From Phycisphaera mikurensis NBRC 102666 (GTDB lineage Bacteria > Planctomycetota > Phycisphaerae > Phycisphaerales > Phycisphaeraceae), in contig NC_017080.1 of NCBI RefSeq assembly GCF_000284115.1, positions 60,001 through 92,000 of the forward strand: a stretch of DNA of 32,000 nucleotides, given 5' to 3'. How positions within the stretch are numbered: position 1 is the first letter of the stretch; every line of letters starts with the position of its first letter. The notes under the pieces were generated by a model. The model ran no database searches. It saw only the letters and a program-made list of their open reading frames with translations, and had not been told where the DNA came from. Shown piece after piece: positions 4,331 through 31,323 of the stretch. The position numbers and the translations under genes were made by a program.

Positions 4331-4421
4331 ACGTGCTCCCCAAGGAGCGGGATCGTGATCGCCTCAAGCCCCCGGCGGCGATGCCCGAGAAGCCGAAGCG
4401 GCAAGCCGGCGGCCCTGGCGC

Positions 4422-5999: not shown

Positions 6000-6075
6000 G
6001 CATCCACCCGCGCGGCCCTTAGACTCCTCGGCTCCCTTGCCTCTTGCCGGCGGCACCCGCTGACTTCCGCCTCCG

Positions 6076-6927: not shown

Positions 6928-6942
6928 AGGGGGAAATCCAGC

Positions 6943-10489: not shown

Positions 10490-11900
10490 TTTGGTAGAGG
10501 CACATCACGAGCACCAGGAAGGCGTAGAAAACGCCGCGGAGCGGCCACACCCAGCCCCGGACGAAGACGTGACGGCCCGTGAGGCGTTGCGGCACGTCGA
10601 GCAGCAACACCAGGGTGAGCGGGAACGCAACCGACGACGCAACCTGCACCCAAGGTCCGGCTCGAAGGGGGATCGAACCGAGGCCCCAGAGGAAGGCAAA
10701 GGAATCCGCGAGATGGGCCGCGCGGAAAAACACCCAGCAAATCATCACGAGAGTCATCGTCAGGAGCCAGGAAGCGGCGGCCCAAGCGAGGCCGGCCACG
10801 ACACCTAGACCGCGGGCCGGGGCTGGCCCGTCGTCAGGAAGCGGACGCCACTCCCGAAAGGCCTTGTGCACGCATAGCGCGACGCCGTGGAGCCCACCCC
10901 AAACGACGAAGTTCCAGCTCGCGCCATGCCAAAGGCCGCCGAGGAGCATGGTGGCGAGGAGGTTGAGGTAAGTCCGCAGGCGGCCGCACCGATTCCCGCC
11001 GAGCGGGATGTAGAGATAATCGCGCAGCCACGTTGAGAGCGAGACGTGCCAACGCCGCCAAAACTCGGTGACGGAACGTGACAGGTACGGCTGCTCGAAG
11101 TTTCGCATCAGCTCGATGCCGAAGCACCTCGAGACGCCCCGCGCGATGTCTGTGTACCCCGAGAAGTCTCCGTAGATCTGGATGGTGAACAGAAGGATCC
11201 CGGTGGCCAGGGTTGTCCACGAGGCGTCGCCGGGCGACGTGAACGCCTGCTGCACCAGCGGGGCGACGGCGTCGGCCACCGCGATCTTCTTGAACAGCCC
11301 TGTGAGGATCAGGAAAGCGCCGCCAGCGAGCTGCTCCGCGTCGACCCGCCGAGGCGACTCGAACTGGTGAAACATGTGCTGGGCCCGCTCAATGGGACCG
11401 GCGACGAGCTGAGGGAAGTAAGCGACGTAGAGGGCGACGTCGATCAGGTCTCGCCGCGCCTCAACGCGGCCGCGGAACACGTCGACGGTGTAAGCGATGG
11501 TCTGGAAGGTGTAGAACGAGATCCCGACCGGAAGAATGACCTCCAGGAGCGGCAGGTTCGCTTCAAGACCCAGCGATCCGAGCGTCGAGGCGGCGCTGTC
11601 GATGAAAAAGTTCCAGTATTTGAAGAATCCCAGGATTCCCAAGTTCGAGAGCAGGCTGACGCCCAGGAGGGCCCGTCGCCGCGCTCGGTGCGAAGGACTG
11701 GTTGCCGCCAGAAGCCGCGCGACGATGTAGTCAACCCCCGTCGAAAAGAGCAGCAGCGAGCAAAAACGCCAGTCCCACCAGCCATAGAAGGCGTAGCTGG
11801 CTAGCAGCAGCCACAGATTCTGCGCCCGACGCCCGATGCCCTGATAAACGATCCACACTGCGAGGAAGAACCACGCGAAGATCCAGGAGTTGAAGACCAA
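10452..11900 (-). CDS. Membrane-bound O-acyltransferase (MBOAT), AlgI/DltB/PatA-like
   Basis: The N-terminus MVFNSWIFAWFFL (TTG start at 11900-11898) is typical. So are the motifs WRRWHVSLSTWLRDYLYIPLGGNR and LLGGLWHGASWNFVVWGGLHG, which contains the catalytic His region. Length is 482 aa. Confidence 0.93.
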   Translation of the reverse strand: MVFNSWIFAWFFLAVWIVYQGIGRRAQNLWLLLASYAFYGWWDWRFCSLLLFSTGVDYIVARLLAATSPSHRARRRALLGVSLLSNLGILGFFKYWNFFIDSAASTLGSLGLEANLPLLEVILPVGISFYTFQTIAYTVDVFRGRVEARRDLIDVALYVAYFPQLVAGPIERAQHMFHQFESPRRVDAEQLAGGAFLILTGLFKKIAVADAVAPLVQQAFTSPGDASWTTLATGILLFTIQIYGDFSGYTDIARGVSRCFGIELMRNFEQPYLSRSVTEFWRRWHVSLSTWLRDYLYIPLGGNRCGRLRTYLNLLATMLLGGLWHGASWNFVVWGGLHGVALCVHKAFREWRPLPDDGPAPARGLGVVAGLAWAAASWLLTMTLVMICWVFFRAAHLADSFAFLWGLGSIPLRAGPWVQVASSVAFPLTLVLLLDVPQRLTGRHVFVRGWVWPLRGVFYAFLVLVMCLYQSDVDAPFIYFQF

Positions 11901-11903
11901 GAC

Positions 11904-12515
11904 TCACGCCTCCCGGGGTGTCGCGGGTGCCCGAAGCGCCCGATCGTGGCCGGCTCCACGCTCCAGCGTGACCGCCTCCCGGCCGGGCCGCTTCTTCAGC
12001 GGCCTGCACGGGGAGCCAACGTACACCGTCCAGGGCTCGAGGCTGCGGAAAGCTCCTCCGCGGGCTCCCAGAATCGCGCCTTCGCCGATCGTCACGCCGG
12101 GACCCACGAAGGCATCGGTGGCCACCCAGGCGTCGTCACCGATCTCGATCGGAGGGCGAAGCATCGGCATGGAGGCCGGCCGGGTGTAGTCGTGACTGCC
12201 GGCGCACAGCTTGCAGAAGTGGCTCAGCGTCACGCGCTTGCCCACCGTCACCGGGCCGAGGCAGTAGAACCAGACCTCTTCTCCCGTGGCCGTGTCATCG
12301 CCCACCGAGAGGTTCCAAGGGCACATGAAGCGGCATGTGCGGCGGATCTTCGTTGTTGGATGCACGTCCGCGCCGAAGCAGCGCAGCAGGAAGGCACGCC
12401 AGCGGTACCAAGTCGGCCAAGTCAGCCGGAAGAGAGTCGCCTCCACCAGAGCCCATAGCATGCGTCTTGCCTTCTCACGGAAGGTGAAGGGGCTTCGGTG
12501 TCGGTCCGCTTCCAT
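11904..12515 (-). CDS. Left-handed beta-helix (hexapeptide) acetyltransferase, WcaF-like
   Basis: The start is taken at ATG 12515-12513 (MEADRHRSPFTFREKARRMLWALVEATLFRL…). The hexapeptide region is IEIGDDAWVATDAFVGPGVTIGEGAILGARG. It aligns with the paralog at 14764..15321. The upstream 108 codons of track ORF 11904..12839 overlap the divergent pyruvyl transferase gene. Confidence 0.85.
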   Translation of the reverse strand: MEADRHRSPFTFREKARRMLWALVEATLFRLTWPTWYRWRAFLLRCFGADVHPTTKIRRTCRFMCPWNLSVGDDTATGEEVWFYCLGPVTVGKRVTLSHFCKLCAGSHDYTRPASMPMLRPPIEIGDDAWVATDAFVGPGVTIGEGAILGARGGAFRSLEPWTVYVGSPCRPLKKRPGREAVTLERGAGHDRALRAPATPREA

Positions 12516-12596
12516 ATTGATGCACGCATTCTCTAGCCTGACCGCCCCGTGAGCTTCGCGGGAGATCAGCGCCGCCCCTCTCAACGCAGACGCGAC

Positions 12597-13568
12597 ATGC
12601 CACGATACGGACTCCTCACCTACGAAACCGCCAATCTCGGGGATGACGTGCAGAGCCTTGCGGCTCGTCAATACCTCCCTCGGGTCGACGAGCTGGTGAA
12701 TCGTGACGCACTTGGCCGCAGCGCCGAAGGTGATCCGCTGACGATGATTATGAACGGCTGGTGGCTCCAGAATCACGCCGACTGGCCGCCGCCCGAGCGG
12801 ATCTCCCCGCTCTACGTCGCCTTCCATGCCGCCAAACATGCGCGGAAGTCACTGACCTCCGAGGCCTCGCTCAACCACCTGCGGGCCCATGCGCCAGTCG
12901 GGTGCCGCGATCAGAAGACCCTGGAGCTGCTAGAGGGCTGCGGCGTCGAGGCATACAAGTCCGCTTGCCTGACCCTGACGCTGCGCCGGCCCGACCCGGG
13001 TGCATCACGCCGTGGGACCGTCTTCTGCGATCCCTTCGGTCACGACGTGAAGTACCGGTTCCATCGGAAGGGAGAGGCGAAGTACGAAGCCTGGCTGAAG
13101 CAGCTGGGGCGTGGTCGGAACTTCGACGACGCGACGCACCTCACCAACGAGATCGATCCCACGATGCCCGCCGAGCGTCGCTACGCGCTCGCGGAGGAGC
13201 ACCTCGCTCGCTTCGCCAACGCGGAGCTGGTGGTGACCTGCCGGATCCACTGCGCCCTGCCCTGCCTCGCATTCGGAACACCGGTGCTCTTCCTGATCCC
13301 GCGTCGTGGAAGCGACATGTTCCTCGGGGGCCTCGTCGGATGGCTGCGTTGGCGGCTGAGAGGGAACGCCCTCTCAGACAAACGTTTCCCGGGCCTGGTC
13401 GACCTGATGCACCACCGCCGGCTCCAAGACGTCGAGTCTGGCACGGCGGCTCCGTTCGACTTCGACCAGCCCCCCGCCAACCCCGTGCCGATCGAGCCCA
13501 TCGCCGGCCCCTTGCGGGAGCGGTGCGAAGCCTTCATCGCGGCCGCCGAAGCATCCTCGGAGGCCTGA
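12597..13568 (+). CDS. Polysaccharide pyruvyl transferase family protein
   Basis: [41 protein letters not shown] and [22 protein letters not shown] match the CsaB/WcaK-type pyruvyl transferase motif pattern. The ATG at 12597 is preferred over the GTG at 12549. Confidence 0.8.
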
Positions 13569-13570
13569 CG

Positions 13571-14728
13571 GTGGACCGCCCCCTCCGGCTCGTCCACGCT
13601 GTGCCCTCGTGGTGTCACAGCGCCTATCGAGCAACAGGCGTCTCGCGAGCCGCCTGGGATCTCGCCGACGCCCTCGCCGAGGCGGGGCACCACGTTGACG
13701 TCGTCTGCCCGGAGGTGGATCTCGCAGAACGCTTCGTGCCGCCGGCGGAGCGGGTCTTCCGGGATGGACGCCTCAAGGTCCACACGGTTCCGGAGGCCCG
13801 CACCACCCGTTTCGGGACCGGCCGGAACGGCTTGGATGCGGTGGCGACTCCGCTCATCCAGCAGGCCGACCTTGTGCACGTACACGCCTTCTTCAGCCCG
13901 TGGAGCGACCGGGCGGCGCGGCTTGCCCAATCCACGCGGACGCCTTACGTCGTCCAGCCCCACGGGAAGCTCTCGCCCTCGATGCTCGCCTCTCAGCGGC
14001 GTGCCAAGGCGGTCTACCTCGGCCTCTACGGAAAACGCCTGCTCACGCGGGCCTCTGCGGTGATCGTTCTCGCGGAGGGCATTGCGGACTCCGTGCACCG
14101 CTGGCTTCCCGAGGCCCGTCTGGAGGTCTGCCCAAACGGGTTGAGCCCCGAGGAATACGCCGAGCCGCCAGCCGATCGGCCTACGAATCATCCCTATCTC
14201 CTCTATCTGGGCCTGATCGACCCACGCAAGCGAATCGATCTTTTGTTGGAGGCGATGCCGACGGTCCTTGCGCAGCGGCCGGGGTTGCGCCTGGCCTTGG
14301 TGGGCGGGGACCGGTATGGGCACCTGCCGGACCTGCAGCCACAAATTGATGCGCTGGGCGATGCCGTTCTGCTCCCTGGCCACGTCTCCGGTGAGACGAA
14401 GCTCCAGTGGCTCCACCACGCGGAGGCATTTGCGCTCGCCTCGGACGGCGAGGGCCTGAGCCTGTCCATGCTCGAGGCCCTCGCCTGCGGCCTGCCCTGC
14501 CTGCTCAGCCCCGGGTGCAACGCGCCGGAAGTTGAAGAAGCGGGTGCGGGGGAGACCGTCGCTTCAACGCCTTCGGCCTGGGCGGACGCCTTGATCCGCT
14601 GGAGCGACCGGTCGCAGCGCCACCGAGACGCCGGTCGCGCCGCCCAGCGGCTCTTCCAGGAGCGCTTCACGCTTCGAGCGGTTTCCGAACGCATGACCTG
14701 CATCTACAAAGATGTGCTCGCCCGGTGA
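13571..14728 (+). CDS. Glycosyltransferase family 4 (GT-B)
   Basis: The GTG at 13571 lies 2 nt after the upstream stop and gives (M)DRPLRLVHAVPSW… The EX7E motif EGLSLSMLE is followed by ALACGLPCLLS. The N-terminal part of track ORF 12761..14728 is an off-frame overlap. Confidence 0.9.
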   Translation: MDRPLRLVHAVPSWCHSAYRATGVSRAAWDLADALAEAGHHVDVVCPEVDLAERFVPPAERVFRDGRLKVHTVPEARTTRFGTGRNGLDAVATPLIQQADLVHVHAFFSPWSDRAARLAQSTRTPYVVQPHGKLSPSMLASQRRAKAVYLGLYGKRLLTRASAVIVLAEGIADSVHRWLPEARLEVCPNGLSPEEYAEPPADRPTNHPYLLYLGLIDPRKRIDLLLEAMPTVLAQRPGLRLALVGGDRYGHLPDLQPQIDALGDAVLLPGHVSGETKLQWLHHAEAFALASDGEGLSLSMLEALACGLPCLLSPGCNAPEVEEAGAGETVASTPSAWADALIRWSDRSQRHRDAGRAAQRLFQERFTLRAVSERMTCIYKDVLAR

Positions 14729-14763
14729 ACGACGCCGCGACCTCTGGTCAACCTCTTCACGCG

Positions 14764-15321
14764 ATGGACAAGACCTTCTTCCGGCTAGAGCGAAGCCCCG
14801 CGACACCCGCCGGACGCAAGGCCGTGATCCTGAGGGTCGTGTGGGCCGCCGTTGAACGGACGCTGTTCCGCCTGCCGCTTCCCCGCTGGTTGCGGCTCCG
14901 ACGCCGGCTGCTGCGCCTCTTCGGCGCTTCCTTCGACGGGCACTGCTCCTCCAGAATCCGGGTGTGGTACCCCTGGAAGCTACGGATGGGCCGCCTCTCG
15001 ATGGCGGGCGATCGGGTGACCTTCTACAACCTCGCGCCCATCACCATCGGAGACTCCACCGTCCTGTCCCAAGACGCGTACCTGTGCGCCGGCACGCATG
15101 ACCACCTCGACCCCACCTTCCCGCTGGTGGCGGACCACCGCGCGGCCATCCGCATCGGGAATGGAGTCTGGGTGGCCGCAGGCGCCTTTGTGGGGCCGGG
15201 CGTGACCATCGGCGACAACGCCGTGGTGGCGGCCCGCAGCGTGGTGGTGAAGGACGTGCCGGCCGGGGCCATCGTCGGCGGGAACCCGACACGGATCATC
15301 GGACACCGGCCCGCGGGCTAG
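14764..15321 (+). CDS. Left-handed beta-helix (hexapeptide) acetyltransferase, WcaF-like (paralog of 11904..12515)
   Basis: MDKTFFRLERSPATPAGRKAVILRVVWAAVERTLFRL… aligns with the N-terminus of the other LbH enzyme. The hexapeptide region is IRIGNGVWVAAGAFVGPGVTIGDNAVVAARS. GC3 rises only after 14764. An alternative GTG at 14725 overlaps the GT4 stop (GTGA). Confidence 0.85.
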   Translation: MDKTFFRLERSPATPAGRKAVILRVVWAAVERTLFRLPLPRWLRLRRRLLRLFGASFDGHCSSRIRVWYPWKLRMGRLSMAGDRVTFYNLAPITIGDSTVLSQDAYLCAGTHDHLDPTFPLVADHRAAIRIGNGVWVAAGAFVGPGVTIGDNAVVAARSVVVKDVPAGAIVGGNPTRIIGHRPAG

Positions 15322-16274
15322 GAATCCGCGCCGGCGGTGGCATCGTCGGGCGGTGGCGAGGTGCCCTCGCCGTCTGCGAGCGCCCGAGCGTGCAGCAGGA
15401 TCATCTGCTCGTAGACGCGCAGCATAGATGCGTACGTCCAGCCGGCGCGGCCGTCGAAGACGCCGCGTTGCAGCACCAGCACGATGAGCCATCGAAGCGT
15501 CGGCCGCGCCGGCAGCCGCTGAAACAGCGACTTCACGGCGCGACGCCGGCGGACCCCATCGCTTGACAGCAGCGCAGCCAAGCCCGCGGCCTCGCCTTCC
15601 ACCGCCCGGCGTGCCTGCTCCGCCTCCCGCCGCGCGTACCCGTTGTGCTTCGCGAGCCACGCCTCCATGCCCTTGGCGAAGGCGTGGTGCAGATACGGCT
15701 CGCCGAGCCTCCCGATGCGGCCGCCGGGACGCTCCCGTTGCCCGTGCCCATGGTCGATGAAGCGCATGCGGTCGGCGTGGAAGAACCGCATCTGGAACAC
15801 CGGGTACCCGCCCGCATACCGCAGCCATTGCCTGTGGAGCATCAGCTTGTGGGCGACGTGCAGACCGTCAACTGTATCCGCATCGGGCGACGCGACGAAG
15901 CGACGTATCTCCTCGACGAGCGCGGGCGTGAACTCTTCGTCCGCATCGAGGTGGAAGACCCACTTGTGTCGCGGCTCCGCATGGTCTATCGCCCAATTGC
16001 GTTGCCGGCCAAACGATTCAAACGGATTCGTAAACACGCGTGCTCCCGTGGCTTCCGCGAGCGAGCGCGTTTCGTCGGTGGAGCCCGAATCGACAACGGC
16101 CACGTCGTCGCACCAGCGGCAGCTTGCCAGCGCCGCGGGAAGCGTCCCCGCCTCGTTGTGTGTCAGAAGGACCACCGACACCGGCACCACGCCCCGGTCG
16201 GGGTAGGTCCCCGCGGAGGAGTCGGGTGCCAGGGGCCTATGGAGCGACACGAGGGTCAGGATAATGACCGACAC
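15318..16274 (-). CDS. Glycosyltransferase family 2 (GT-A)
   Basis: VSVVLLTHNEAGTLPAALAS…VVDSGSTDET…FHLDADE carries the DxD-type motif. There is a C-terminal amphipathic/helical tail. The likely true start is a GTG at 16190 or 16187, giving (M)VPVSVVLL, rather than the GTG at 16274. Confidence 0.85.
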   Translation of the reverse strand: MSVIILTLVSLHRPLAPDSSAGTYPDRGVVPVSVVLLTHNEAGTLPAALASCRWCDDVAVVDSGSTDETRSLAEATGARVFTNPFESFGRQRNWAIDHAEPRHKWVFHLDADEEFTPALVEEIRRFVASPDADTVDGLHVAHKLMLHRQWLRYAGGYPVFQMRFFHADRMRFIDHGHGQRERPGGRIGRLGEPYLHHAFAKGMEAWLAKHNGYARREAEQARRAVEGEAAGLAALLSSDGVRRRRAVKSLFQRLPARPTLRWLIVLVLQRGVFDGRAGWTYASMLRVYEQMILLHARALADGEGTSPPPDDATAGADS

Positions 16275-16351
16275 GCGGTGTCACCGATCTGCCGGAGCGT
16301 TGATCGCCGGTCCTCGGGCGCCGGCACTCCGGCACGCGATAGCCTCCTGGC

Positions 16352-17203
16352 GTGCCCGCTGTCCGCCTGCCGATCTCCATCCTGATCCTCGTGAAGGACG
16401 AGGAGGAGCACCTACCGCTGCTGCTGGAGACTCTCGGCGGATTCGAAGACATCGTGGTGCTCGACTCGATGAGCACCGATGGGACAATTGAGATCGCCGA
16501 GGCCGCCGGATGCAGGGTGGTCCGCCGCCAGTTCGACACGTGGGCGGAGCACCAGAATTGGGCGATGGAGAACATCGAGTTTCGCCACCGGTGGGTCTTC
16601 TACCTCGACGCGGACGAGCGGATGACTGACGCCGTCCGCGGCGAGATTCATCAGATCGCGGCGTCCCCGCAGGAGCCGCCGCCGCACCGGGCGTACTACG
16701 TCGGGCGGGACAACCGCCTCTTCGGCCGCTCGCTCCGGCACGCCATGGGTGGCGGCGTGGTGATGCGCTTCTTCCAACCCGCGCACATCCGCTTTGCGCG
16801 GCGTGTGAACCCGCAGCCTGTTCTTGAGGGGGAGCCCGGCTACCTGCGGAGTCGCTTCATCCATCACCACTTTGCGCGTGGCTTCGCCCAGTGGTTCGAG
16901 AAGCACAACCGCTACGCGGGCTGGGAAGCGCAGGAGTGGATCGAGGCGGTGGACGCAACGCCGCTGCGGTGGAAGCCGCTTTTTGCACGCGACCGGAACA
17001 CGCGGCTACAGGCGATCAAGCGAGCGTCCTTCCACCTGCCCTTCCGCCCGCTGCTCAAGTTTCTGCACATGTACCTCTGGCGGCGAGGCTTCCTTGACGG
17101 AAGCCCGGGCTTCCACTGCTGCGTGCTGATGAGTATTTTTGAGTACATGATCGGGCTCCGGGTCAAGGAGATGCGACGCCGCAGCGCAGGAAAGCCGGTC
17201 TGA
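16352..17203 (+). CDS. Glycosyltransferase family 2 (GT-A), paralog of 15318..16274, divergently transcribed
   Basis: MPAVRLPISILILVKDEEEHLP…VLDSMSTDGT…FYLDADE. The C-terminal half is co-linear with the neighbour (…FAKGMEAWLAKHNGYARREA… versus …FARGFAQWFEKHNRYAGWEA…). Confidence 0.85.
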   Translation: MPAVRLPISILILVKDEEEHLPLLLETLGGFEDIVVLDSMSTDGTIEIAEAAGCRVVRRQFDTWAEHQNWAMENIEFRHRWVFYLDADERMTDAVRGEIHQIAASPQEPPPHRAYYVGRDNRLFGRSLRHAMGGGVVMRFFQPAHIRFARRVNPQPVLEGEPGYLRSRFIHHHFARGFAQWFEKHNRYAGWEAQEWIEAVDATPLRWKPLFARDRNTRLQAIKRASFHLPFRPLLKFLHMYLWRRGFLDGSPGFHCCVLMSIFEYMIGLRVKEMRRRSAGKPV

Positions 17204-17216
17204 CAGAGCGTTGCCG

Positions 17217-18899
17217 TCAGTCGAATGACGATCGCTCCAACGACAGACCTTCCCTCATAAGTCTGAGTGTCTCCAGCCGCCACGCGCTCTTGGGAGACCA
17301 CGACTCGTGCCCCCAGATCGCAACAGCGTCCGCTTCCTCAAGAGCGACTTCGAGTTGCAGGCGCCAGAAGTCGGTGCTGGCGCCTTTCGCGGTCCAGAGG
17401 AAGGCGATGACGGGCTTGCCAGCCTCCTTCGCCTCGTCCAGCATCGCTCGCGCTCGCGACACCCACAGTTCGTGGGTCGGCCTCGCACCAGCTCCCGTGT
17501 CCCACGCGTAGATCGCCGGGAAAATAAGGTCCACCGCGTCCACGAGCCGCTGTGCCTCGCGGTTGAGTTGCTGCTGCGCGGCGAACATGCCCGGATTGGA
17601 AGGTTCGGGATACCGCCTCGCCTGCACGTAAGTGTATTGCGGGAAGATGCCCCAGTAACCGAGGCGGACACCGGGACGTTCCTCGCGGAAGATCTCTAAG
17701 AGGCGAATCAGCCGATCGATCGCGCTAGTGCGTGCTGCACTGTCTTCCGTCAAGACGGGCCAGTGCTCTACATCGAGGCAGTACATCTTCGCCTCGGGAA
17801 GTCGGCGGATGCGTTCGCGTATCTCCGACTCCGGCGGCAAGGTGTCCCAATAACCCGCTTGGCCGCGACGGAAGCCGAGGTGTCCCGGGTAGATGACGTG
17901 GAGTCGCCTCACCGGCAATCCTTCCCAGTCCACTGGCTCATCGAACGCGGTCGCGTCGAAGATCCGATCCGCCCAAGCGGCTGAGTCTGCGGCCTTCGGT
18001 GTCAGGTCAGGATCAACCGCGGAGCTGATCGCATCCGGCGCGGAATCCTGAACCGGAGCGGCGCTCGCCGATCCTGCCGCAGGGAGATGAACCAGCGCCA
18101 CCTCTTCGGATCCGTTGCTCTGCATCGCGGCACCGGCGATGCGTGCTCCCGCGGCTCCCTCCGCCGAACGCTCCGGGTTCGGAAGAGGCACATCGTCTCC
18201 AGCGCCCGCTGTCGATGGTGCCGAACGGGGTCTTGAGCTCGGAGCAGGAGTCGGCAAAGCGCTCAGACCTCCGGACGAGGCATCGCCCGCCGCAGTTCCG
18301 CCACCGGTTGGTGCGGGCTGAGAGACTTGCGTGCCCGGGAGCAGCGCTCCCCTCAACGCACGGGGGGGAGATTGGACCGCTTTCGAAGATCTGCCCGCCA
18401 GCGACGGCGGGGCGTTCCAACGCGGCAAGGCGACGGAGGACCCGGCCACCAACTCCGCTGTGTCGATAGAAGCGAGATTGGGGCGGATCCGATCGAGAGA
18501 AGGAGGCGCCGGCAGCGGGCTCTCCGTTTCCGGCGAGGATTCGCGATCGGGCTCGACGGACGTCCGGACCCGGGGCACCGCGCGAACGTCCGATGCCCCA
18601 TCGGAGCTCTTCGTGGCTCGGGCCTTCGCAAACGGCCGCACCTCTTGCGTCGGGACGAGGGCGGGGACACGGAAGGCGGAGGGGGTGCCCGCCTCCGCTC
18701 GGGCAGAAGCTGGCGGGTGGAACCAGAGCGTCAAGCTGGCGCTGCTGCCCAGCGCGAAGGCCGTGAAGAGACAGACTGCGACATGGTGGTTCACGAGGAC
18801 ACTCCCGACGGCGAACCCTTCGCCATCGGCTCCGCCCGGCGCTCGCTCAAGGTGCATCGAGCGAACACGGCCGGCCTCATTCGGCGCTGTCAGCGTCAC
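17217..18899 (-). CDS. Membrane-anchored protein with a long Ser/Pro/Ala-rich linker and a C-terminal GH56 (hyaluronidase)-like domain
   Basis: There is a signal anchor (VAVCLFTAFALGSSASLTLWF) and a roughly 230-aa low-complexity linker. The C-terminal domain of about 250 aa carries, in order, CLDVEHWP, RLGYWGIFPQ, DLIFPAIY, KPVIAFLW and ADAVAIWGHE. The start is either the GTG at 18899 or the ATG at 18857. Confidence 0.72.
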   Translation of the reverse strand: MTLTAPNEAGRVRSMHLERAPGGADGEGFAVGSVLVNHHVAVCLFTAFALGSSASLTLWFHPPASARAEAGTPSAFRVPALVPTQEVRPFAKARATKSSDGASDVRAVPRVRTSVEPDRESSPETESPLPAPPSLDRIRPNLASIDTAELVAGSSVALPRWNAPPSLAGRSSKAVQSPPRALRGALLPGTQVSQPAPTGGGTAAGDASSGGLSALPTPAPSSRPRSAPSTAGAGDDVPLPNPERSAEGAAGARIAGAAMQSNGSEEVALVHLPAAGSASAAPVQDSAPDAISSAVDPDLTPKAADSAAWADRIFDATAFDEPVDWEGLPVRRLHVIYPGHLGFRRGQAGYWDTLPPESEIRERIRRLPEAKMYCLDVEHWPVLTEDSAARTSAIDRLIRLLEIFREERPGVRLGYWGIFPQYTYVQARRYPEPSNPGMFAAQQQLNREAQRLVDAVDLIFPAIYAWDTGAGARPTHELWVSRARAMLDEAKEAGKPVIAFLWTAKGASTDFWRLQLEVALEEADAVAIWGHESWSPKSAWRLETLRLMREGLSLERSSFD

Positions 18900-18933
18900 C
18901 GGTCCAGACGTCAGGACCAGTCACCTCCAGTGG

Positions 18934-19737
18934 TCAGTGATTCATCCAGGCTGCGGACCAGCCCCGAGACGCTTCTACAATTGCGTCCGCAGACGCGACC
19001 GGCAACGGCTCCGGCGCGAACACGATGACCCCTTCGAAGGCAGGCCACAACTCGGCGATCTCCCACGCCCAAGCTTCATCGGGAACAGGTCGGCCAGCCA
19101 GCTCGCCCCATTGCTTCGCTTGAGGGTGAAGCCAAGCCCACGTCACGAGATAAACCGGCTTGTCGAAGTTCGATTTCGCGATCCGCAACTGCTCAAGAAC
19201 GGCTCTGGCATGTGCATCTCGATCCGGCGTTAACGCATAGCCGTAGACGGAGGTGAAATCACACCAACCTTCCAGGCCGTCGTCACCCCGCCTCAACGCC
19301 AGCCAGTGCCGGACTTGCTCGGCGTCGGGACCCTCCGGCTCGCTCCAAGCAAACTCGCGGTAGAGCGACTCAGCCGCCGTGTAGAAGACGCCGATCCGCC
19401 GATCGGGACCGATCCGGCGGAGCGCCGGAAGCACCTCCCGCCAGTCCTTCGCTTCACCCCGCTCTTTGTTGTAGAACAAAGGCCCGGGAGGCAGATCCAA
19501 CATGCCCCGCTGACGCAGCCAGGCGTTTCCGCCGAAGCGGAAGCCCCGGTGCGGATCGAGCACGAGGTGGTCAGGAATCCAGACCATCGGGCGGGCGACC
19601 TCGGCGAGCGCGCGGTCCAGAGGCGGCGCTCCCGGCGGGGCCGCGATGTACACCAGAGGTCCGTCGGGCAACCCCGCCGCGGAAGCGGCACCTCCGCTGT
19701 CGAGCGACGACAACATGACCACGCAACCCCACAGCAT
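18934..19737 (-). CDS. Shorter paralog of the C-terminal domain of 17217..18899, with signature residues substituted
   Basis: By-eye co-linearity is FYNKERGE / RIGVFYTAA / CDFTSVYGY / KPVYLVTWAW / FEGVIVFAPE. The start is taken at ATG 19737 (MLWGCVVMLSSL…). The upstream part of track ORF 18934..19896 overlaps well-coding sequence of the divergent gene and has poor protein character. An alternative ATG is at 19716. Confidence 0.6.
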   Translation of the reverse strand: MLWGCVVMLSSLDSGGAASAAGLPDGPLVYIAAPPGAPPLDRALAEVARPMVWIPDHLVLDPHRGFRFGGNAWLRQRGMLDLPPGPLFYNKERGEAKDWREVLPALRRIGPDRRIGVFYTAAESLYREFAWSEPEGPDAEQVRHWLALRRGDDGLEGWCDFTSVYGYALTPDRDAHARAVLEQLRIAKSNFDKPVYLVTWAWLHPQAKQWGELAGRPVPDEAWAWEIAELWPAFEGVIVFAPEPLPVASADAIVEASRGWSAAWMNH

Positions 19738-21220
19738 CAGCCGCAGCTCACCCCCAACCGAGCGACACCGCCCGCTGAAGAACCAAGCTCGCGTGCTGTT
19801 GCGTCTCGCTCTGGTGCTCTTCATCGTCATTGCGGTCCTGCTTCTCGTGCAACGAGGGTTTCTGCGGGGTCTCGATCGTTCACTCGACCTCACCATGATC
19901 TATGCGGCGGCCAAGGCATGGCTCACGGGCCGCGATCCATACGCTTTTGCGCCCCTGTACGACCTGTATCTCGCTTCCGGAGGAACCGACAAGGCCCGCG
20001 ACGCCGATCAGTTCACCAGCCTCTACCCACCCACAACCTACGCGCTGCTCTCCCCCTTGGGACTGCTCTCTTGGCCAGCGGCGAAAGCCGCTTGGCTCGC
20101 CTTCAACGGCTTACTCATCGGGTTCTGCGTCGCCGCCATGCTCCTGTTGCGGGCCCCAGGACTCCGCAGAGGTTCTTCCCTGCAGCTCGGTCTTTTGGGG
20201 GTGACGCTGGTCTGGGCACCACTCCACACGGCTCTCTCGCTCGGCCAGCTCTCCGTCGCATGCACGGCGGCGGTTCTCCCGATTGCGGTCTTCGCGGGCA
20301 GGAAGCCCGGCACCGCCGTTGCGGTCATGGCAGGGAGCGCGTTGGGCGCGGCGGGCGCCTTGAAGCCTCAACTCCTATTCTTGTTGGGTCCTGCGATTTT
20401 GCTGACTCGATGGCGTGCCGCAGGTCCGATCGCAATTGTTGCGGCTTCGGTCGTTGCAGCGGTGGCGATCGTCCGGGTTTCAGGCAGTGCCCCGAACTGG
20501 TGGGACACTTGGATGCAGAACGTTGAAGCATTCACCAGCAGCAGCATCGGTCGTCCGGATCCTGCCAATCCGCAATTCCATGAGATGATGCACCTCGAAA
20601 CCATCGTCGGTTTGGTTTTGCCCGCCGCGGAAGGATCTTGGCGCACCCTCATCGCGACGGTGCTACCCGTCGGAATCTTCGTGCTCGCCGGGTCGGTGCT
20701 GCTGGTCCGTCACCGCCTGCAACCGCTTCCTGCCGAGGACGCTCGAGCTTGGCTGGCTCTCTCCGCCGTTCTTACGGTTCTCACCGGCTATCACCGCTCT
20801 TACGATGCAACGCTGTTGCTGGTCGCCCTTGTTGCATTGGCGGCGCGTGCGGCGGCGAGGCCGTCCTCCATCGTGACTTGGCTGATGGGCTTCGCGGCGG
20901 CGGCGTTTCTCGTACCCGCTCCGTCCGTCTTCGTCGCGATGACAAGACGAGGCCTGCTTCCTCCCGCTTTAGCCGAGGAGCCGCTGTGGCAGGCCACGGC
21001 GCTTCAAGCCCATAGCTGGGCGGCTCTCGCCTGGGCAGCATTGATACTTCGGGACCTCCTCAGCCCGCCTCAATGGAAAAGCAAGCCTGGGCGTGATGAT
21101 TCCCTAATGGTCGATCGCGATCCTGATGGACTGCTCCCCGAGTCAAGTCCTGGTGGTTCTCCATTGGGTCGCCTAACGCGTGGCGCGCCAGGCAGCCGGG
21201 AACGTCGGCGGCCTCGTTGA
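19715..21220 (+). CDS. GT-C fold glycosyltransferase, GT87/DUF2029-like (paralog 2 of 3)
   Basis: LDLTMIYAAAKAWLTGRDPYAFAPLYDLY…SLYPPTTYALLSPLGLLSWPAAKAAW… and GALKPQLLFLLGPAILLTRWR are co-linear with paralog 3. The start is taken at ATG 19715. The last roughly 55 codons (about 21060-21220) have poor GC3, so the native C-terminus is doubtful. Confidence 0.8.
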   Translation: MTTQPHSISRSSPPTERHRPLKNQARVLLRLALVLFIVIAVLLLVQRGFLRGLDRSLDLTMIYAAAKAWLTGRDPYAFAPLYDLYLASGGTDKARDADQFTSLYPPTTYALLSPLGLLSWPAAKAAWLAFNGLLIGFCVAAMLLLRAPGLRRGSSLQLGLLGVTLVWAPLHTALSLGQLSVACTAAVLPIAVFAGRKPGTAVAVMAGSALGAAGALKPQLLFLLGPAILLTRWRAAGPIAIVAASVVAAVAIVRVSGSAPNWWDTWMQNVEAFTSSSIGRPDPANPQFHEMMHLETIVGLVLPAAEGSWRTLIATVLPVGIFVLAGSVLLVRHRLQPLPAEDARAWLALSAVLTVLTGYHRSYDATLLLVALVALAARAAARPSSIVTWLMGFAAAAFLVPAPSVFVAMTRRGLLPPALAEEPLWQATALQAHSWAALAWAALILRDLLSPPQWKSKPGRDDSLMVDRDPDGLLPESSPGGSPLGRLTRGAPGSRERRRPR

Positions 21221-22856: not shown

Positions 22857-23480
22857 CTACTGGCACCCCACCCCGCACACGGCGAGGTACTGGAGGCCGG
22901 GGGTGAAGAGCCAGCGGTAGGGGCGGGGGTAGAGCTGGAGGGAGGTGGTCTCGTGGGCGGGGTGGAGGCCGGCGGCGGCGAAGCGGTGGCGCCAGCCCTG
23001 CGCGTCGGGGTAGTCGTAGAGGCACTCCACGCCGTAGCCGGTGTTGGCGGCCCAGTCCATGAGGCAGATGCGGGCGTGGGCAAGCGGCAGCTGGCCGCCG
23101 GGGTGGTGGTCCTTGACGATGACCAGGCGGCTGGCGACGCGGGCGCACTCCGTCAGGACGGCGACGGGGTCGGGGTCGTGGTGGAGGACGTCGGCGACGG
23201 TGACGACGGAAAACGCGCCCGCGGCGAAGGGGAGGCGGCGGCCGTCGTAGGGCGTCACCGGGATGGGTTCGCCGCCGCGGGGGTGGGTCTCGGCGCCCTC
23301 GGCGTGCAGGCCGGGGACGGCGGAAGCGAGGGCGGCGGCCAGGGCGCCACCGCCGCAGCCGAGGTCGAGGAGGCGGTCGGTGGGCTCGAGGTGCGGGGCG
23401 AGGGCGGCGGTGAGCGCGGCCTGCCGGCAGCGGTAGACCGGGGCGTGGAGGCGGCGGGCGAGGGGGGCGAGGAGGCTCAT
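22857..23480 (-). CDS. Class I SAM-dependent methyltransferase
   Basis: The internal ATG at 23480 gives MSLLAPLARRL…DRLLDLGCGGGALAAAL (motif I) …FSVVTVADVLHH… Length is 207 aa. The start forms an ATGA overlap with the upstream stop. Confidence 0.85.
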   Translation of the reverse strand: MSLLAPLARRLHAPVYRCRQAALTAALAPHLEPTDRLLDLGCGGGALAAALASAVPGLHAEGAETHPRGGEPIPVTPYDGRRLPFAAGAFSVVTVADVLHHDPDPVAVLTECARVASRLVIVKDHHPGGQLPLAHARICLMDWAANTGYGVECLYDYPDAQGWRHRFAAAGLHPAHETTSLQLYPRPYRWLFTPGLQYLAVCGVGCQ

Positions 23481-24060
23481 GGGGCGGGGTCGCCTTCGCG
23501 AGGGTCGTGTGGTCCCTCGGCATCGAACAGCGACACGTCGGCGCGGTACTGAAAGCGGCGGCTGCGCTTCTGCCCGGTGATCTCCTCCAGGATGCGGAGC
23601 TCCTCGAACTCGGCGACCGGGTTCTTCGCCGCGGCGTACTCGAGCCCGGTCACCTCCCGCACGTGCCGGACCGAGACGATCGGCTGGCGGAACGGCGACT
23701 CGATCACGCGGTGCCCGTGCGCCGCCGGGCGGCCCAGCGCGGAGGTGAGCCGGTCGCGATCGCGCTCCCGGAGCGTCAGATGGACGCTTCCGCGGAAAGA
23801 GCGTCCCGCAGCGAGCTCTGCGTCCCCTCGATCTGGCTGGAGAGCACGGCCTCCTTCCGCACGTGCATGAAGACGAGGAAATCGGGGTGGGGCAGCGTCG
23901 TGATCGATCCGTCGAGGCGACCCGGAGCATGGTCGGCCACCGAGAGACGCTCCTGGAGCCGGCCGGAGAGCCAGGCCGGCGGGAGGCAGGGCGCAGGGCA
24001 GAAAGGCCCGGTGCCCGCCGCTCTGGGGGACGCACCGGCCCGCCCGGGTGGCGTTCTGCT
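23477..24060 (-). pseudogene. Fic/DOC-family gene remnant: the Fic_N segment and the C-terminal winged-helix segment lie in different frames and the catalytic core is absent
   Basis: The frame of ORF 23776..24093 reads …GRLDGSITTLPHPDFLVFMHVRKEAVLSSQIEGTQSSLRDAL, a Fic_N signature. The frame of ORF 23477..24097 reads …FRQPIVSVRHVREVTGLEYAAAKNPVAEFEELRILEEITGQKRSRRFQY, the Fic C-terminal wHTH signature. No HPFxxGNGR motif occurs in any frame between them, and the whole locus is only about 0.6 kb. Confidence 0.6.
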
Positions 24061-24181
24061 CGGACGATGCGGCCATGGTGCCGGCTCGATCACGCATGGA
24101 GCGGAAAGCGTTCCATGCGATGCGGGGTAGCGTAGGGAACCAGAACCTCGGTGTGTGCTCCCGGAGAGCGCATCGTGTTCC

Positions 24182-25180
24182 TCACCGCGCCGCCCACGCC
24201 GCGGCGAGCGTCGCCGCGCCTAGGGCCCAGGTCACCGGGTCGCGGACGAGGAAGGTGAGCGGGTCGCCGTGGATGCGGCCGCGGTGGGCGAGGAACCAGA
24301 GGCGGTTGAGGCCGAACAGCACGAGGCCGACGACGATGGCGAGGCGGCGGGGGTGGGCGTAGAGGGCCCGGACGGCGTCGCTGGAGAGGTAGAGGGTGAG
24401 CACGACGCCGGCGGACCAGGCGCTCGCGACGCCCATGGCGAGTACCAGCGGGGCGTCGGACGGTTGCCAACCTCGGCCGGGAACGGCCTCGGCAGATGTC
24501 CCGGGAGAATGCTCGCGCACGGCGGATCCGAAGAGCGTGAGCAGCTCGGCGTAGCGCTTGCCCAGGGCGAGGGTGAGGAAGACGGCCCCGGCGAAGCCGA
24601 GCAGCCAGGGGCTCGGGAAGAGGCCGACCACGAAGCCGCCGGCGAGCAGGCGGGCGAGGTAGAAGCCCGAGAGGCAGGCGACGTCGACGATGGGTTCGCG
24701 TTTCAGGCGGAGGCTGTAGGCGAAGGCGAGCGTGGCGTAGCCGAGCAGCGTGGCGGCGAAGCCGGCGGGGCTGGGGGCGGTGGCGCCGGGGGCGGCGGCA
24801 ACCGGCGGGTCGACCAGAAAGAGCGCGGCGGTGAGGGCGGCGGCGAGGAGGAGCAGGCCGGGGACGGCGGCTTTGGCGACGCCGGGCCGGAGGCGGCCGG
24901 AGGCGATCGGCCGCTCCCGCTTGGTGGGGTGGAGGCGGTCGGCGTCGGCGTCGAGCAGGTCGTTGACCAGGTAGACGACGCTGGCGACGGCGCTGAACGC
25001 CGCGGCGGCGAGGGCGACGGCGAGCCAGCGGGTGCCGTCGCCGGCGGCGTGGCCGGCGAGCATCGGCACGGCGACCAGCAGGTTTTTGGGCCACTGCCGC
25101 GGGCGGCAGGCGGCGAGGAGCGCCGCCCCCCGTGCCGCTCGAGCCGCAACGCCGGTCGGGTTCGAGGGGGAAGCAGCCAA
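24182..25180 (-). CDS. UbiA-family prenyl-phosphate phosphoribosyltransferase (decaprenyl-phosphate 5-phosphoribosyltransferase-like)
   Basis: The C-terminal 332 codons of track ORF 24182..26515 read …RPRQWPKNLLVAVPMLAGH…VVYLVNDLLDADADRLHPTKRERPIASGRL… The NDxxD and HPTKRxRPIA motifs match the Rv3806c-type enzymes, with about 8-9 TM segments. The start is assigned to the TTG at 25180-25178 (uncertain). The upstream part of the track ORF is antisense to the divergent gene. Confidence 0.85.
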   Translation of the reverse strand: MAASPSNPTGVAARAARGAALLAACRPRQWPKNLLVAVPMLAGHAAGDGTRWLAVALAAAAFSAVASVVYLVNDLLDADADRLHPTKRERPIASGRLRPGVAKAAVPGLLLLAAALTAALFLVDPPVAAAPGATAPSPAGFAATLLGYATLAFAYSLRLKREPIVDVACLSGFYLARLLAGGFVVGLFPSPWLLGFAGAVFLTLALGKRYAELLTLFGSAVREHSPGTSAEAVPGRGWQPSDAPLVLAMGVASAWSAGVVLTLYLSSDAVRALYAHPRRLAIVVGLVLFGLNRLWFLAHRGRIHGDPLTFLVRDPVTWALGAATLAAAWAAR

Positions 25181-25264
25181 GGGAATCCGCGGACCGTGGG
25201 CGATTCGGGCCGTTTCCGTCGACGGTCCGCGGCGCGGGAGCGCCGTGTCGGTCAAGCTACCCCC

Positions 25265-26593
25265 GTGGAGCCCCGACGCCCCCCGGAAACGAAGCGGCCA
25301 CGCGGGCTCGTCGGGTTCGCGTGGGCGGTGCTGGCGGTCGCGGGGATCCTGCTGCTCGTGCGTGGCGTGCTGCCGGGGCTGGCGTTCTCGGGCGACTTCA
25401 CGATGATCCACGCGGGGGCGAGCGTGTGGCTCGACGGCGGGAACCCCTACGACTTCGACACGCTCTACAACGGCTGGAAGGCCGACGGTGGCGGGAGCGA
25501 GCGGCCGCGGGAGGAGCGCTGGTTCGTCGCGCTGTACCCGCCCACGACCTACGCGGCGCTGGCCCCGGTCGGGGCGCTGGGCTGGCCGGCGGGGCGTGCG
25601 GCGTGGGTGCTGCTTTCGGGGCTGTCGGTGGCGGGGGTGGCGGCCTGGGGGGCGGCGTGGCTGCGCCGGAACCCAACGCACCCCCCAAGGGGCGTGGCAC
25701 CCGAGCGTGCGAGGCCGTGGCTCGTGCTGCTGCTGGCGGCGTGGCTGTCGGCGGGGCCGGTCGCGACGACGCTGGAGTTCGGGCAGCTGGGGCTGGTGGT
25801 GCTGGCGCTGGTGGCGCTCGCGGTGGGCACGCCCGGCTGGCGGCCGCCGGCCTGGGCGGCGGGGGCGGCGCTGGCGGGGGCGGGCTGCGTCAAGCCGCAG
25901 CTCGCGGGGGTGTTCGCGCTCGGCTTCGTGGCGCTGGGCCGCTGGCGGGAGCTGGCGTGGACGCTGGGCGTGGGTTCCGCGATCGCGGCGGTGGCGGTGC
26001 TGCGGCTGGAGGCGGCGGGGGTGGCGTGGGCGACCGGGCTGCTCGACAACGTGCGCCGCTTCGCGGGCACGGGCTTCGCCGATCCGTCGCCGGCGAACCG
26101 GGTGGCCTGGCAGATGGTGAACCTCGAGCCGCTGTGGCGGCGCTTCTTCAGCGGGGGGGCGCCCGTCGGCGTGGCGGCGGTGTGGGCCGTGGCCGCCGCG
26201 GGGGTGGCGTGGCGGGTGCGGAAGCGGGCCGGGCCCGCGGGCGGCTTCACGCTGTGGGTGATGTCGGTGGCGTCGGTGGTGACGCTGCTGATCGCCTACC
26301 ACCGCGCGTACGACGCGGTGCTGCTGGCGGTGCCGGCGGTGTGGGCGGTGCGGGGCCTGCTCGCGGGCGGGCGGCTGGCCCCCGCGGCGGTGCTGGTGGG
26401 CGTCGCGTTCTTCTGGCCGCCGGTGCCGGAGCTGCTGAACCACCTGGCCTTCCGCGGGTGGCTGCCGCGGTCGCAGCGCTGGCCGTTCGTGTTGGAGACG
26501 GCGGTGATGTTCCACCGGCCGGGGGTGCTGGTGGGGGTGCTGGGGGTGCTGCTGGGGGTCCGTTCGCGACCGGGCGATGGTCGGACACGCTGA
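25265..26593 (+). CDS. GT-C fold glycosyltransferase, GT87/DUF2029-like (paralog 3 of 3)
   Basis: The GTG at 25265 gives (M)EPRRPPETKRPRGLVGFAWAVLAVAGILLLV…GDFTMIHAGASVWLDGGNPYDFDTLY…ALYPPTTYAALAPVGALGWPAGRAAW…GCVKPQLAGVFALGFVALGRWR. This is co-linear with paralog 2. The first 332 codons of track ORF 24269..26593 are antisense to the UbiA gene. Confidence 0.8.
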   Translation: MEPRRPPETKRPRGLVGFAWAVLAVAGILLLVRGVLPGLAFSGDFTMIHAGASVWLDGGNPYDFDTLYNGWKADGGGSERPREERWFVALYPPTTYAALAPVGALGWPAGRAAWVLLSGLSVAGVAAWGAAWLRRNPTHPPRGVAPERARPWLVLLLAAWLSAGPVATTLEFGQLGLVVLALVALAVGTPGWRPPAWAAGAALAGAGCVKPQLAGVFALGFVALGRWRELAWTLGVGSAIAAVAVLRLEAAGVAWATGLLDNVRRFAGTGFADPSPANRVAWQMVNLEPLWRRFFSGGAPVGVAAVWAVAAAGVAWRVRKRAGPAGGFTLWVMSVASVVTLLIAYHRAYDAVLLAVPAVWAVRGLLAGGRLAPAAVLVGVAFFWPPVPELLNHLAFRGWLPRSQRWPFVLETAVMFHRPGVLVGVLGVLLGVRSRPGDGRTR

Positions 26594-26762
26594 CGCGGAC
26601 GGGGATGCCGGAGGCGGTGCGGAGGTGCGATCCCGCGGGTGCGTGCTGCGGAGCGGGACACGCTCGCGTGCTCGACGGCGCCCGCGGAGGAGCGGCGGAA
26701 GGGCCCGACAGGCGTCGCCGGCACGGCGTTTCCGGGGTCAACTCCGGCCGGAACGCTGGGCC

Positions 26763-27422: not shown

Positions 27423-27482
27423 GGGGCCGTTGTCGGCGATCCGATGCGGTTTGGCAACCCGGCGGCCCGTTGCCGCTTATCA

Positions 27483-28058: not shown

Positions 28059-28158
28059 CCGCACCCGGCCGGCCGGCCGGCGGGGCCGCGGCGTCGGCCG
28101 GGAGCAAAGCCCCGCGTTCGCCGGGCCCCTACGCTGCGTCGCCCCCCGGGGGACGCCC

Positions 28159-28232
28159 GACCGGGTAGCTCAATTGGTTAGAGCATCGGCCTTTTAAGCC
28201 GCTGGTTCTGGGTTCGAGTCCCAGCCTGGTCA
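28159..28232 (+). tRNA. tRNA-Lys (anticodon UUU)
   Basis: A cloverleaf was folded by hand. The acceptor stem is GACCGGG/CCTGGTC (one G-U pair). The D arm is GCTC-AATTGGTTA-GAGC. The anticodon arm is TCGGC-CTTTTAA-GCCGC, with anticodon TTT at 28193-28195. The variable loop is TGGTT and the T arm is CTGGG-TTCGAGT-CCCAG. The discriminator is A, and no CCA is encoded. Confidence 0.93.
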
Positions 28233-31271: not shown

Positions 31272-31323
31272 GGCACGGTGCCCTGCACCGCGGGCCGCGC
31301 CGCGATCGTGGGCGTGGCGGCCG

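Follow-up and report, generated by a model that had tools for sequence, protein, structure and literature searches.

Enzymes of glycoside hydrolase family GH56 act on hyaluronan and chondroitin by substrate-assisted retaining catalysis. Other glycosidases, including PslG (GH39), the hydrolase domain of PelA (GH166), BcsZ (GH8) and the C-terminal domain of PgaB (GH153), are encoded inside the biosynthetic loci of the polymers they process, and PslG is anchored in the membrane by one N-terminal hydrophobic segment. Here we describe two adjacent reverse-strand genes in a 32,000-nucleotide stretch of the genome of Phycisphaera mikurensis NBRC 102666 (contig NC_017080.1, positions 60,001 to 92,000; hereafter the window, with positions counted from its first letter). 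The first encodes protein 1, whose C-terminal domain is homologous to GH56 on the sequence evidence presented below, and the second encodes protein 2, a diverged paralog with a degenerate catalytic signature (Table 1). For each of the two, P. mikurensis entries of 100% identity exist in the databases. Unlike the GH56 hyaluronidases, protein 1 is bacterial and is encoded in a polysaccharide biosynthesis locus, which is also the setting of PslG, PelA, BcsZ and PgaB. It appears to be GH56-like in fold and catalytic design and, by analogy, closest in biological role to PslG, PelA or BcsZ.

GH56 was once considered animal-specific and was later extended to choanoflagellates and a filasterean, and Richter et al. 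treat it as a holozoan family. In one microbial genome paper GH56 was absent from the bacteria analysed there, and in another genome paper it was confined to the termite host within that dataset. Our literature search returned no description of bacterial GH56-like proteins. One match to the term 'GH56' proved to be the name of an archaeal isolate and not the glycosidase family.

Searched alone, protein 1 matched no Pfam or NCBIfam model even at E<=10, and no PDB sequence. Three distant homologs (29-30% identity) keep exactly the motifs flagged in protein 1, and a four-sequence profile matched the bee hyaluronidase structure 1FCQ (E=1.7e-6) and wasp Ves v 2 (2.6e-4) in the PDB. A profile of 117 sequences, compared with 177,635 PDB sequences, matched 1FCQ at 2.8e-9, 2ATM at 4.6e-5, human HYAL1 (2PE4) at 1.7e-4 and PH-20 at 0.15, so that all solved GH56 hyaluronidases were matched, whereas other glycosidase families were absent. 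The similarity of this profile to GH56 enzymes spans strands 4-7 only. The Pfam model for GH56 (PF01630, Glyco_hydro_56), which the earlier note had proposed as a check, matches 63 of the 117 relatives singly at E<=0.01 (best E=2.3e-12), and 33 of them reach about its gathering score (for example P0063 with 33.5 bits and P0086 with 27.8 bits). The check therefore came out in favour of the family, but not of protein 1 itself.

Structure prediction points the same way. An AlphaFold2 model of the protein 1 domain, computed from the 117-sequence alignment, has a predicted local distance difference test score (pLDDT) of 88 and a predicted template modelling score (pTM) of 0.87, and consists of seven beta-strands alternating with helices. 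In a Foldseek search of the PDB the top five matches were all GH56 (1FCQ at 4.4e-8, then 2J88, 2ATM, 1FCU and 2PE4 at 1e-5), and thus include both the bee and the human enzyme with which comparison had been suggested. Generic triosephosphate isomerase (TIM)-barrel glycosidases of GH2, GH10, GH5 and GH26 ranked after these, and a search of a viral fold library gave nothing specific. GH56 matches were therefore obtained both by profile and by fold. In the model the sequence D376-V-E378 immediately follows strand 3 (domain residues 70-73), which would place this Asp-x-Glu (D-x-E) motif at the barrel active site, as had been predicted. Neither of the two outcomes named in the earlier note as refuting was observed. 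LGYWG forms strand 4, FPAIY strand 5, VIAFLW strand 6 and AVAIW strand 7, and the residues conserved in the family sit at the C-terminal ends of the seven strands.

The five protein 1 motifs on which the GH56 proposal was originally based were all found at the coordinates checked. The GH56 motifs used for that comparison match real bee and wasp sequences in our HMMER alignments (NWGYYAYPYC, VLLPSVY, KVLPYYW, GADGFIIWGSS and GVIDFERWR), and both the profile alignment and the AlphaFold model place the bacterial motifs on the same strands and in the same order. An equivalent of Glu378 is present in all 117 relatives, as is Tyr464; Trp529 is found in 116/117 and Asp376 in 108/117, P461 is invariant, and the full D-E-Y-W set occurs in 226 of 250 family domains. 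D376-V-E378 is colinear with D107-F-E109 of Ves v 2, the segment alone scoring -2 bits. Y464 aligns with bee Tyr227, W529 with bee Trp301 and W416 with bee Tyr184; we take these three bee residues to be those published by Markovic-Housley et al. (2000), whose numbering agrees with the alignment here. At the Tyr184 position, 101 of the 117 relatives have Tyr and two have Trp.

Compared with the described hyaluronidases (1FCQ, Ves v 2 2ATM, HYAL1 2PE4 and PH-20), protein 1 thus shares a predicted seven-stranded beta/alpha barrel, with its motifs on the strands that in GH56 carry D-x-E (after strand 3), G-Y-Y (strand 4), P-S-x-Y (strand 5) and (I/L)-W-G (strand 7), and the bacterial family conserves the counterparts of bee D111, E113, Y227 and W301. 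In contrast to these enzymes, its domain is only 13-16% identical to them in structural alignments and is about 70-80 residues shorter. The interval from D-x-E to strand 4 is about 33 residues shorter, in agreement with the short first interval recorded in the earlier note. The domain also lacks the EGF-like or Cys-rich C-terminal part, contains one Cys only, and has Trp in place of the Tyr184 equivalent. Hyaluronan itself is an unlikely substrate for protein 1. Overall, the protein 1 domain lies below the Pfam threshold for GH56 yet passes the profile and fold tests, its D-x-E being assigned by the model and by conservation. The bacterial family straddles the edge of PF01630, and is an undescribed branch of the GH56-like barrel, neither plain GH56 nor categorically new.

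Protein 1 initially appeared to be an orphan, since a word-indexed search returned only three relatives. This was overturned when 1.84 billion cluster representatives were scanned exhaustively with HMMER, which gave 2235 relatives at E<=1e-3, of which 1489 reach E<=1e-10 and 733 reach E<=1e-30. The identification of GH56 and of a degenerate paralog in the earlier note stands, but protein 1 is not a lone gene of animal type within a bacterium; it is a diverged member of a large and broadly distributed bacterial family. A typical member has about 290 residues, and the N-terminus is hydrophobic in 98 of 118 short members. We scanned one genome per species with the four-sequence alignment as query and kept as loci the best 80 of 84 stretches that encoded a relative. 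About half of these loci are from Nitrospira, and the others include Phycisphaeraceae, Tepidisphaeraceae, Acidobacteriaceae, many Gammaproteobacteria, Bacteroidota, Verrucomicrobiota, Victivallaceae, Bacillota, Binatota and the candidate phylum FCPU426. All family proteins are named 'hypothetical protein' at source, and NCBIfam has no model for the ten canonical members searched. The Pfam result implies that InterPro would tag roughly a quarter of the bacterial family, and CAZy or InterPro may already list a few bacterial GH56 entries.

Protein 2 has no sequence match of its own in Pfam or NCBIfam (E<=10) or in the PDB, and BLASTP between proteins 1 and 2 is not significant (E=1.6). Profile methods support the paralogy that had been claimed for the pair. 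A hidden Markov model (HMM) of 157 family domains matches protein 2 with 26.8 bits (E=1.7e-10 as a single comparison), and among all six-frame open reading frames (ORFs) of the window it matches only proteins 1 and 2 (E=3.9e-8 for protein 2). The hhalign comparison of protein 2 with the family gives 94% probability and E=1.1e-7. HMMER, hhalign and MAFFT all align strands 4-7, where in the MAFFT alignment RRIGVFY, FTSVY, KPVYLVTW and FEGVIVFA of protein 2 replace LGYYG, FPSLY, KPVYAFLW and ADGVVIWG. The resulting substitutions include Trp529 to Phe, Pro461 to Thr, Asp524 to Glu and Trp479 to His. The replacement of IWG by VFA had thus been read correctly, whereas the Pro of FPAIY is exchanged for Thr (in FTSVY) and not for Ser.

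The N-terminal half of protein 2 does not align reliably, and the methods disagree there. MAFFT sets LDLPPGP under LDVEHWP, which exchanges the Glu for Pro, and not the YNKE segment from which an N-K-E replacement had been proposed. A glocal HMM alignment deletes the motif, and HMMER and hhalign leave the N-terminal half unaligned. As the earlier reading held, D-x-E is not intact in protein 2 under any alignment (D-L-P, N-K-E or deletion). The AlphaFold model of protein 2 has an overall pLDDT of 67, which falls below 45 at residues 31-75, the candidate D-x-E region. From these alignments, we conclude that the catalytic residues of protein 2 are lost.

Combinations of a dead and a live domain are also found elsewhere in the family. 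The complete two-domain members number five, of which L078 and P0007 are the same protein, leaving four distinct proteins. In 5/5 an N-terminal domain without the Glu (replaced by Gln or Pro) and with the strand-7 Trp replaced is followed by a canonical C-terminal domain. In each of three lineages the dead domain has the live domain of its own protein among its close relatives, with 38-46% identity, and therefore duplication and inactivation occurred at least three times independently. The dead-then-live order of these fusions is also the gene order in the window, with protein 2 upstream and protein 1 downstream; in one fragment, P0107, the Glu-less domain is at the C-terminal end instead. Adjacent pairs of two canonical copies were identified in Nitrospira, where they are frequent in Nitrospira-type loci, and in Micavibrio. 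Protein 2 is best understood as a fourth case of the dead-plus-live arrangement, in which the copies are not fused and the dead one is far more diverged. The degenerate paralog is real, and the idea of a hydrolase with a pseudo-enzyme gains indirect support from the fusions in three independent lineages and from the 34-nucleotide spacing of the two genes on one strand. Protein 2 resembles the GH18 chitinase-like lectins, dead glycosidase folds that bind glycans, in keeping the scaffold of the C-terminal half-barrel while the catalytic signature is lost, and the fusion N-domains resemble them in the change of Glu to Gln or Pro. In the family studied here, unlike what is usual for those lectins, the dead copy, a putative binder, is genetically coupled to a live one, as an adjacent gene or an N-terminal fusion.

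Protein 2 might instead be a decaying duplicate without function and no partner of protein 1. Its low identity to protein 1 (about 17% in the alignment), the poor model of its N-terminal half, the lack of a specific relationship to the dead domains of the fusions and the fact that a word-indexed search found no homologs outside P. mikurensis are all consistent with this. Nevertheless, the reading frame is intact over 267-320 codons and its codon-position GC is like that of its neighbours (0.75 at third positions, GC3), the scaffold motifs persist in the C-terminal half, which is predicted to fold with confidence, and dead-plus-live arrangements have been retained in three independent lineages of fusions, which speaks for a use of the dead copy. 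We therefore regard simple decay as unlikely.

On balance, we consider it probable, with moderate confidence, that protein 1, exported and probably anchored in the membrane, acts as an endo-beta-N-acetylhexosaminidase and trims the polymer of its own locus, with protein 2 as a non-catalytic partner. We infer the activity, linkage, substrate and membrane tethering of protein 1, and its partnership with protein 2, as follows. Protein 1 would be an exported glycoside hydrolase, probably anchored in the inner membrane, with a compact GH56-like C-terminal barrel of about 250 residues. By analogy with GH56, it would cleave beta-linked N-acetylhexosamine (HexNAc) inside a polymer by substrate-assisted retaining catalysis, in which E378 may donate the proton while D376, Y464 and W529 hold the 2-acetamido group of the substrate as nucleophile. 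The substrate is most likely the Wzx/Wzy-type EPS (exopolysaccharide) of the surrounding locus, probably acylated and, given the sulfotransferase gene in the locus, probably sulfated, as the earlier note had suggested. Protein 1 may trim, size or release this polymer, a role comparable to that of PslG, PelA and BcsZ in their own pathways, and protein 2 may be a non-catalytic glycan-binding or scaffolding partner that binds or presents it.

The resemblance to these EPS-locus hydrolases is a functional analogy, extending to a TIM-barrel-type fold and to the expected trimming or release of the cognate polymer. With PslG, protein 1 would also share export and probable anchoring by one N-terminal hydrophobic segment. 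In contrast, protein 1 has no sequence or family relationship to PslG, PelA, BcsZ or PgaB, and its predicted mechanism depends on a 2-acetamido sugar of the substrate rather than on two carboxylates. It also differs from them in the degenerate paralog alongside and in the fusions of its relatives to Wzy-like polymerase domains in some bacteria.

Export of protein 1 is expected from its homologs, which carry N-terminal hydrophobic segments. In protein 1 such a segment (residues 34-60) is found only in the long gene model of 546 or 560 residues. We consider this long, membrane-tethered form likely from its sequence, because it contains the sole export signal, shortens the gap from protein 2 to 34-76 nucleotides (742 with the RefSeq start), has the same layout as other members and comprises a stop-free run that is rare by chance. 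A signal or transmembrane segment, followed by a Ser/Thr/Pro/Gly linker and then the domain, is also present in P0053, P0086, P0096, P0117 and P0139, and a rough estimate from base composition puts the chance of the 236 stop-free codons in the N-terminal part at about 0.6%. Neutral or adverse to the long form are the codon-position GC, including GC3, which is not decisive for the start and looks atypical at residues 201-240, and the long antisense ORFs that the same GC-rich stretch also holds. The reading frame of protein 2 is open upstream to 19896, which would give 320 residues. Its 5' end (19737 or 19896) overlaps the start of the divergent GT87-like ORF, and therefore at least one of these starts lies further in.

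The association with EPS loci recurs in relatives. Glycosyltransferase (GT), Wzx, exosortase or primer genes are neighbours in 40/40 Nitrospira-type loci and in 19/40 loci from other taxa, for which a single-sequence search was used. An exosortase EpsH-like gene lies within 8 kb of the family gene in 38/40 Nitrospira-type loci, and a WecA-family (HexNAc-1-phosphate) primer is present in 37/40. The genes of relatives P0166, P0165 and P0140 have four GT4 genes on one side and an exosortase EpsH/EpsI gene on the other, in loci that also hold Wzx, a methyltransferase, a carbamoyl- or acetyltransferase and a WecA-family primer. These observations bear on a different role for protein 1, that of a secreted foraging hydrolase of the hyaluronidase or chondroitinase type that attacks exogenous glycosaminoglycan-like or algal polymers, its position in the locus being incidental. 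The known substrates of GH56 enzymes would suit such a role, as would the few relatives outside EPS loci and the dockerin, laminin-G, beta-helix or RTX modules of some members, which are typical of secreted degradative enzymes. However, the gene for protein 1 is situated amid GTs, Wzx and Wzy and has no transporter, sulfatase or lyase partners, the association with EPS loci recurs across phyla, and other members are fused directly to Wzy-like polymerase domains. A foraging enzyme is thus quite improbable.

These fusions were found in P0093, L026 and L049, in which a multi-transmembrane region of about nine helices and the GH56-like domain form a single polypeptide. The membrane region is Wzy_C-like in P0093 (just under the Pfam cut-off) and in L026, and L049 was outside the Pfam scan; the L026 gene is flanked by Wzx, GT4 genes and an epimerase. 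Together with the WecA-family primers in 37/40 Nitrospira-type loci, the Wzy-like fusions suggest the bond made by Wzy as the target. With a WecA-family primer, the repeat unit carries HexNAc at its reducing end, and cutting of the Wzy-made bond may provide chain-length control; this step is weakest for P. mikurensis, whose window has no detected primer.

The fusions would also suit a barrel that remodels the polymer by transglycosylation, transferring or re-joining segments and so setting chain length or acceptor attachment, rather than hydrolysing it. Retaining GH56 enzymes transglycosylate, the fused domains resemble the Wzy_C polymerase and ligase domains, and the family gene is tightly beside exosortase EpsH in most Nitrospira-type loci. 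Set against this, the same catalytic set fits hydrolysis just as well and the known glycosidases of EPS loci are hydrolases or lyases, and we consider transglycosylation as the main role very unlikely.

Protein 1 as an N-acetylglucosaminidase acting on peptidoglycan is highly improbable. Its predicted need for a 2-acetamido sugar would suit such a cell-wall enzyme too, but its context is EPS biosynthesis and not cell-wall genes, and its confident model matches GH56 rather than Cwp19. Cwp19, a TIM-barrel peptidoglycan hydrolase, was the top fold match of protein 2 and was set aside because it derives from the weak model (pLDDT 67). Finally, although protein 1 alone lacks Pfam and PDB matches and its N-terminal half lacks sequence similarity to GH56, a chance resemblance, with protein 1 as a generic TIM barrel bearing GH56-looking motifs, is hardly credible given E-values down to 2.8e-9 (PDB) and 2.3e-12 (Pfam), GH56 in all five top fold matches ahead of other TIM-barrel glycosidase families, and the same motif order and strand placement as in GH56.

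Several observations weigh against a trimming hydrolase with a dead partner. Protein 1 gave no match to PF01630 at E<=10 (gathering score 23.2 bits), and the GH56 fold matches have moderate template modelling scores of 0.53-0.61 (query-normalised). A profile of the N-terminal half, including D-x-E, found nothing in the PDB at E<=10, so that the equivalence of D-x-E is not provable by sequence. Protein 1 departs from its family in having W416 for Tyr, Q442 for a near-invariant Trp, A525 for Gly and R541 for Trp, and these deviations could mean altered or weak activity. The RefSeq model of protein 1 is without any export signal, and database entries differ on its length (123, 231, 324 or 546 residues), which makes the start uncertain. 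A HexNAc-1-phosphate priming transferase was sought in the window and none was found, so that HexNAc in the polymer of this locus is presumptive. The genes in L041 and L065 have housekeeping neighbours, and the EPS link is thus not universal. The possibility that protein 2 and the N-terminal domains of the fusions form one subfamily of dead domains was rejected, as protein 2 scores 18 bits against that profile and 26.8 against the general family profile. Our literature search found no characterised member of the bacterial family.

A broader reading takes all of these proteins as a sister family of GH56 in bacteria, so far undescribed, with the window pair as a diverged representative. Such a family would serve as a standard accessory of Wzx/Wzy- and exosortase-type pathways and cut the Wzy-made HexNAc linkage for chain length or release, often as an obligate dead/live pair, and would be the prokaryotic stock or an ancient sister of the holozoan hyaluronidases. 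We offer this combination tentatively and regard it as rather doubtful as a whole.

Table 1. Positions of the features discussed, in the window or, for L-numbered relatives, in their own stretches.
Feature	Positions	Strand	Remarks
Protein 1, longest ORF	17217-18899	-	560 residues; GTG start at 18899
Protein 1, first ATG	18857	-	gives 546 residues
Protein 1, RefSeq model WP_154661698.1	start 18191	-	324 residues
Protein 1, hydrophobic segment VLVNHHVAVCLFTAFALGSSASLTLWF	18720-18800	-	residues 34-60; Kyte-Doolittle scan; candidate signal anchor or signal peptide
Protein 1, low-complexity Ala/Ser/Pro/Gly linker ('stalk')	17994-18719	-	residues 61-302; Ala 19%, Ser 13%, Pro 12%, Gly 9%
Protein 1, GH56-like domain	17220-17993	-	residues 303-560 (258 residues); predicted seven-stranded beta/alpha barrel
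CLDVEHWP	17757-17780	-	residues 374-381
D376-V-E378	17766-17774	-	proposed catalytic pair (Glu acid/base; Asp orients substrate acetamido group)
RLGYWGIFPQ	17637-17666	-	residues 412-421, strand 4
DLIFPAIY	17508-17531	-	residues 457-464, strand 5
KPVIAFLW	17394-17417	-	residues 495-502, strand 6
ADAVAIWGHE	17304-17333	-	residues 523-532, strand 7
Protein 2, WP_075077250.1	18934-19737	-	267 residues; diverged, signature-degenerate paralog, 34 nucleotides upstream of protein 1
Protein 2, region aligning with the family	19012-19452	-	strands 4-7; HMMER, hhalign, MAFFT
Protein 2, candidate D-x-E counterparts	19459-19503	-	MLDLPPGP 19480-19503; FYNKER 19459-19476
Second GT87-like copy	2118-3374	-	
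Wzx-type flippase (Polysacc_synt_3)	4422-5999	+	E=1e-52
Sulfotransferase (Sulfotransfer_1)	6076-6927	+	E=2.5e-14
Wzy/O-antigen-ligase-like membrane protein	6943-8280	+	Wzy_C E=3.2e-5, 24.2 bits, below cut-off of 31.7
GDSL-like protein	9437-10489	-	O-acylation pair with MBOAT
MBOAT	10452-11900	-	O-acylation pair with GDSL-like protein
Hexapeptide acyltransferase	11904-12839	-	
GT4	12761-14728	+	
GT2	15318-16274	-	
GT2	16352-17203	+	convergent with protein 1, 13-nucleotide gap
GT87-like GT-C membrane glycosyltransferase	19646-21220	+	divergent from protein 2
ORF of 364 residues	22429-23523	-	PhdYeFM antitoxin match at residues 267-302 only
Two-domain member L061	7002-8747		
Two-domain member L078	757-2490		
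Two-domain members P0006, P0007, P0008			
Multi-transmembrane::GH56-like fusion L026	6576-8747	+	Acidobacteriaceae metagenome-assembled genome
Multi-transmembrane::GH56-like fusion L049	6201-8744	+	Acidobacteriaceae metagenome-assembled genome
Multi-transmembrane::GH56-like fusion P0093			metagenomic protein
Family gene region, L011	6468-8756		Nitrospira-type
Family gene region, L025	2805-5161		Nitrospira-type
Family gene region, L035	6513-8756		Nitrospira-type

The glycan locus around proteins 1 and 2 has two GT4, two GT2 and two GT87-like genes in total. The GT87-like pair, of the GT-C type that depends on polyprenyl-phosphate sugars, brackets the locus and is an unusual family for an EPS cluster. 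The MBOAT and GDSL-like genes resemble the AlgI/AlgJ-type pair for polysaccharide O-acetylation, and the position of the sulfotransferase gene between the Wzx and Wzy-like genes predicts a sulfated Wzx/Wzy-type EPS in P. mikurensis. The G+C fraction is 0.61-0.70 in the glycan locus (2000-21000) and 0.74-0.78 downstream (23000-32000), a shift typically seen where polysaccharide loci are variable or have been exchanged horizontally. The 364-residue ORF with a partial PhdYeFM match is probably a small antitoxin gene within an over-extended GC-rich ORF.

The presence of the same barrel and catalytic set in more than 2000 cluster representatives from environmental bacteria means that the origin of the animal hyaluronidases can be tested directly. 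The family adds a candidate processing enzyme to the exosortase and Wzx/Wzy pathways, including those of Nitrospira, which are relevant to biofilm and floc formation in nitrifying systems. Its compact domains of about 250 residues are bacterial hyaluronidase-like scaffolds for enzymology or biofilm dispersal, and the recurrent dead-plus-live arrangement offers a clean natural system for the study of pseudo-glycosidase function.

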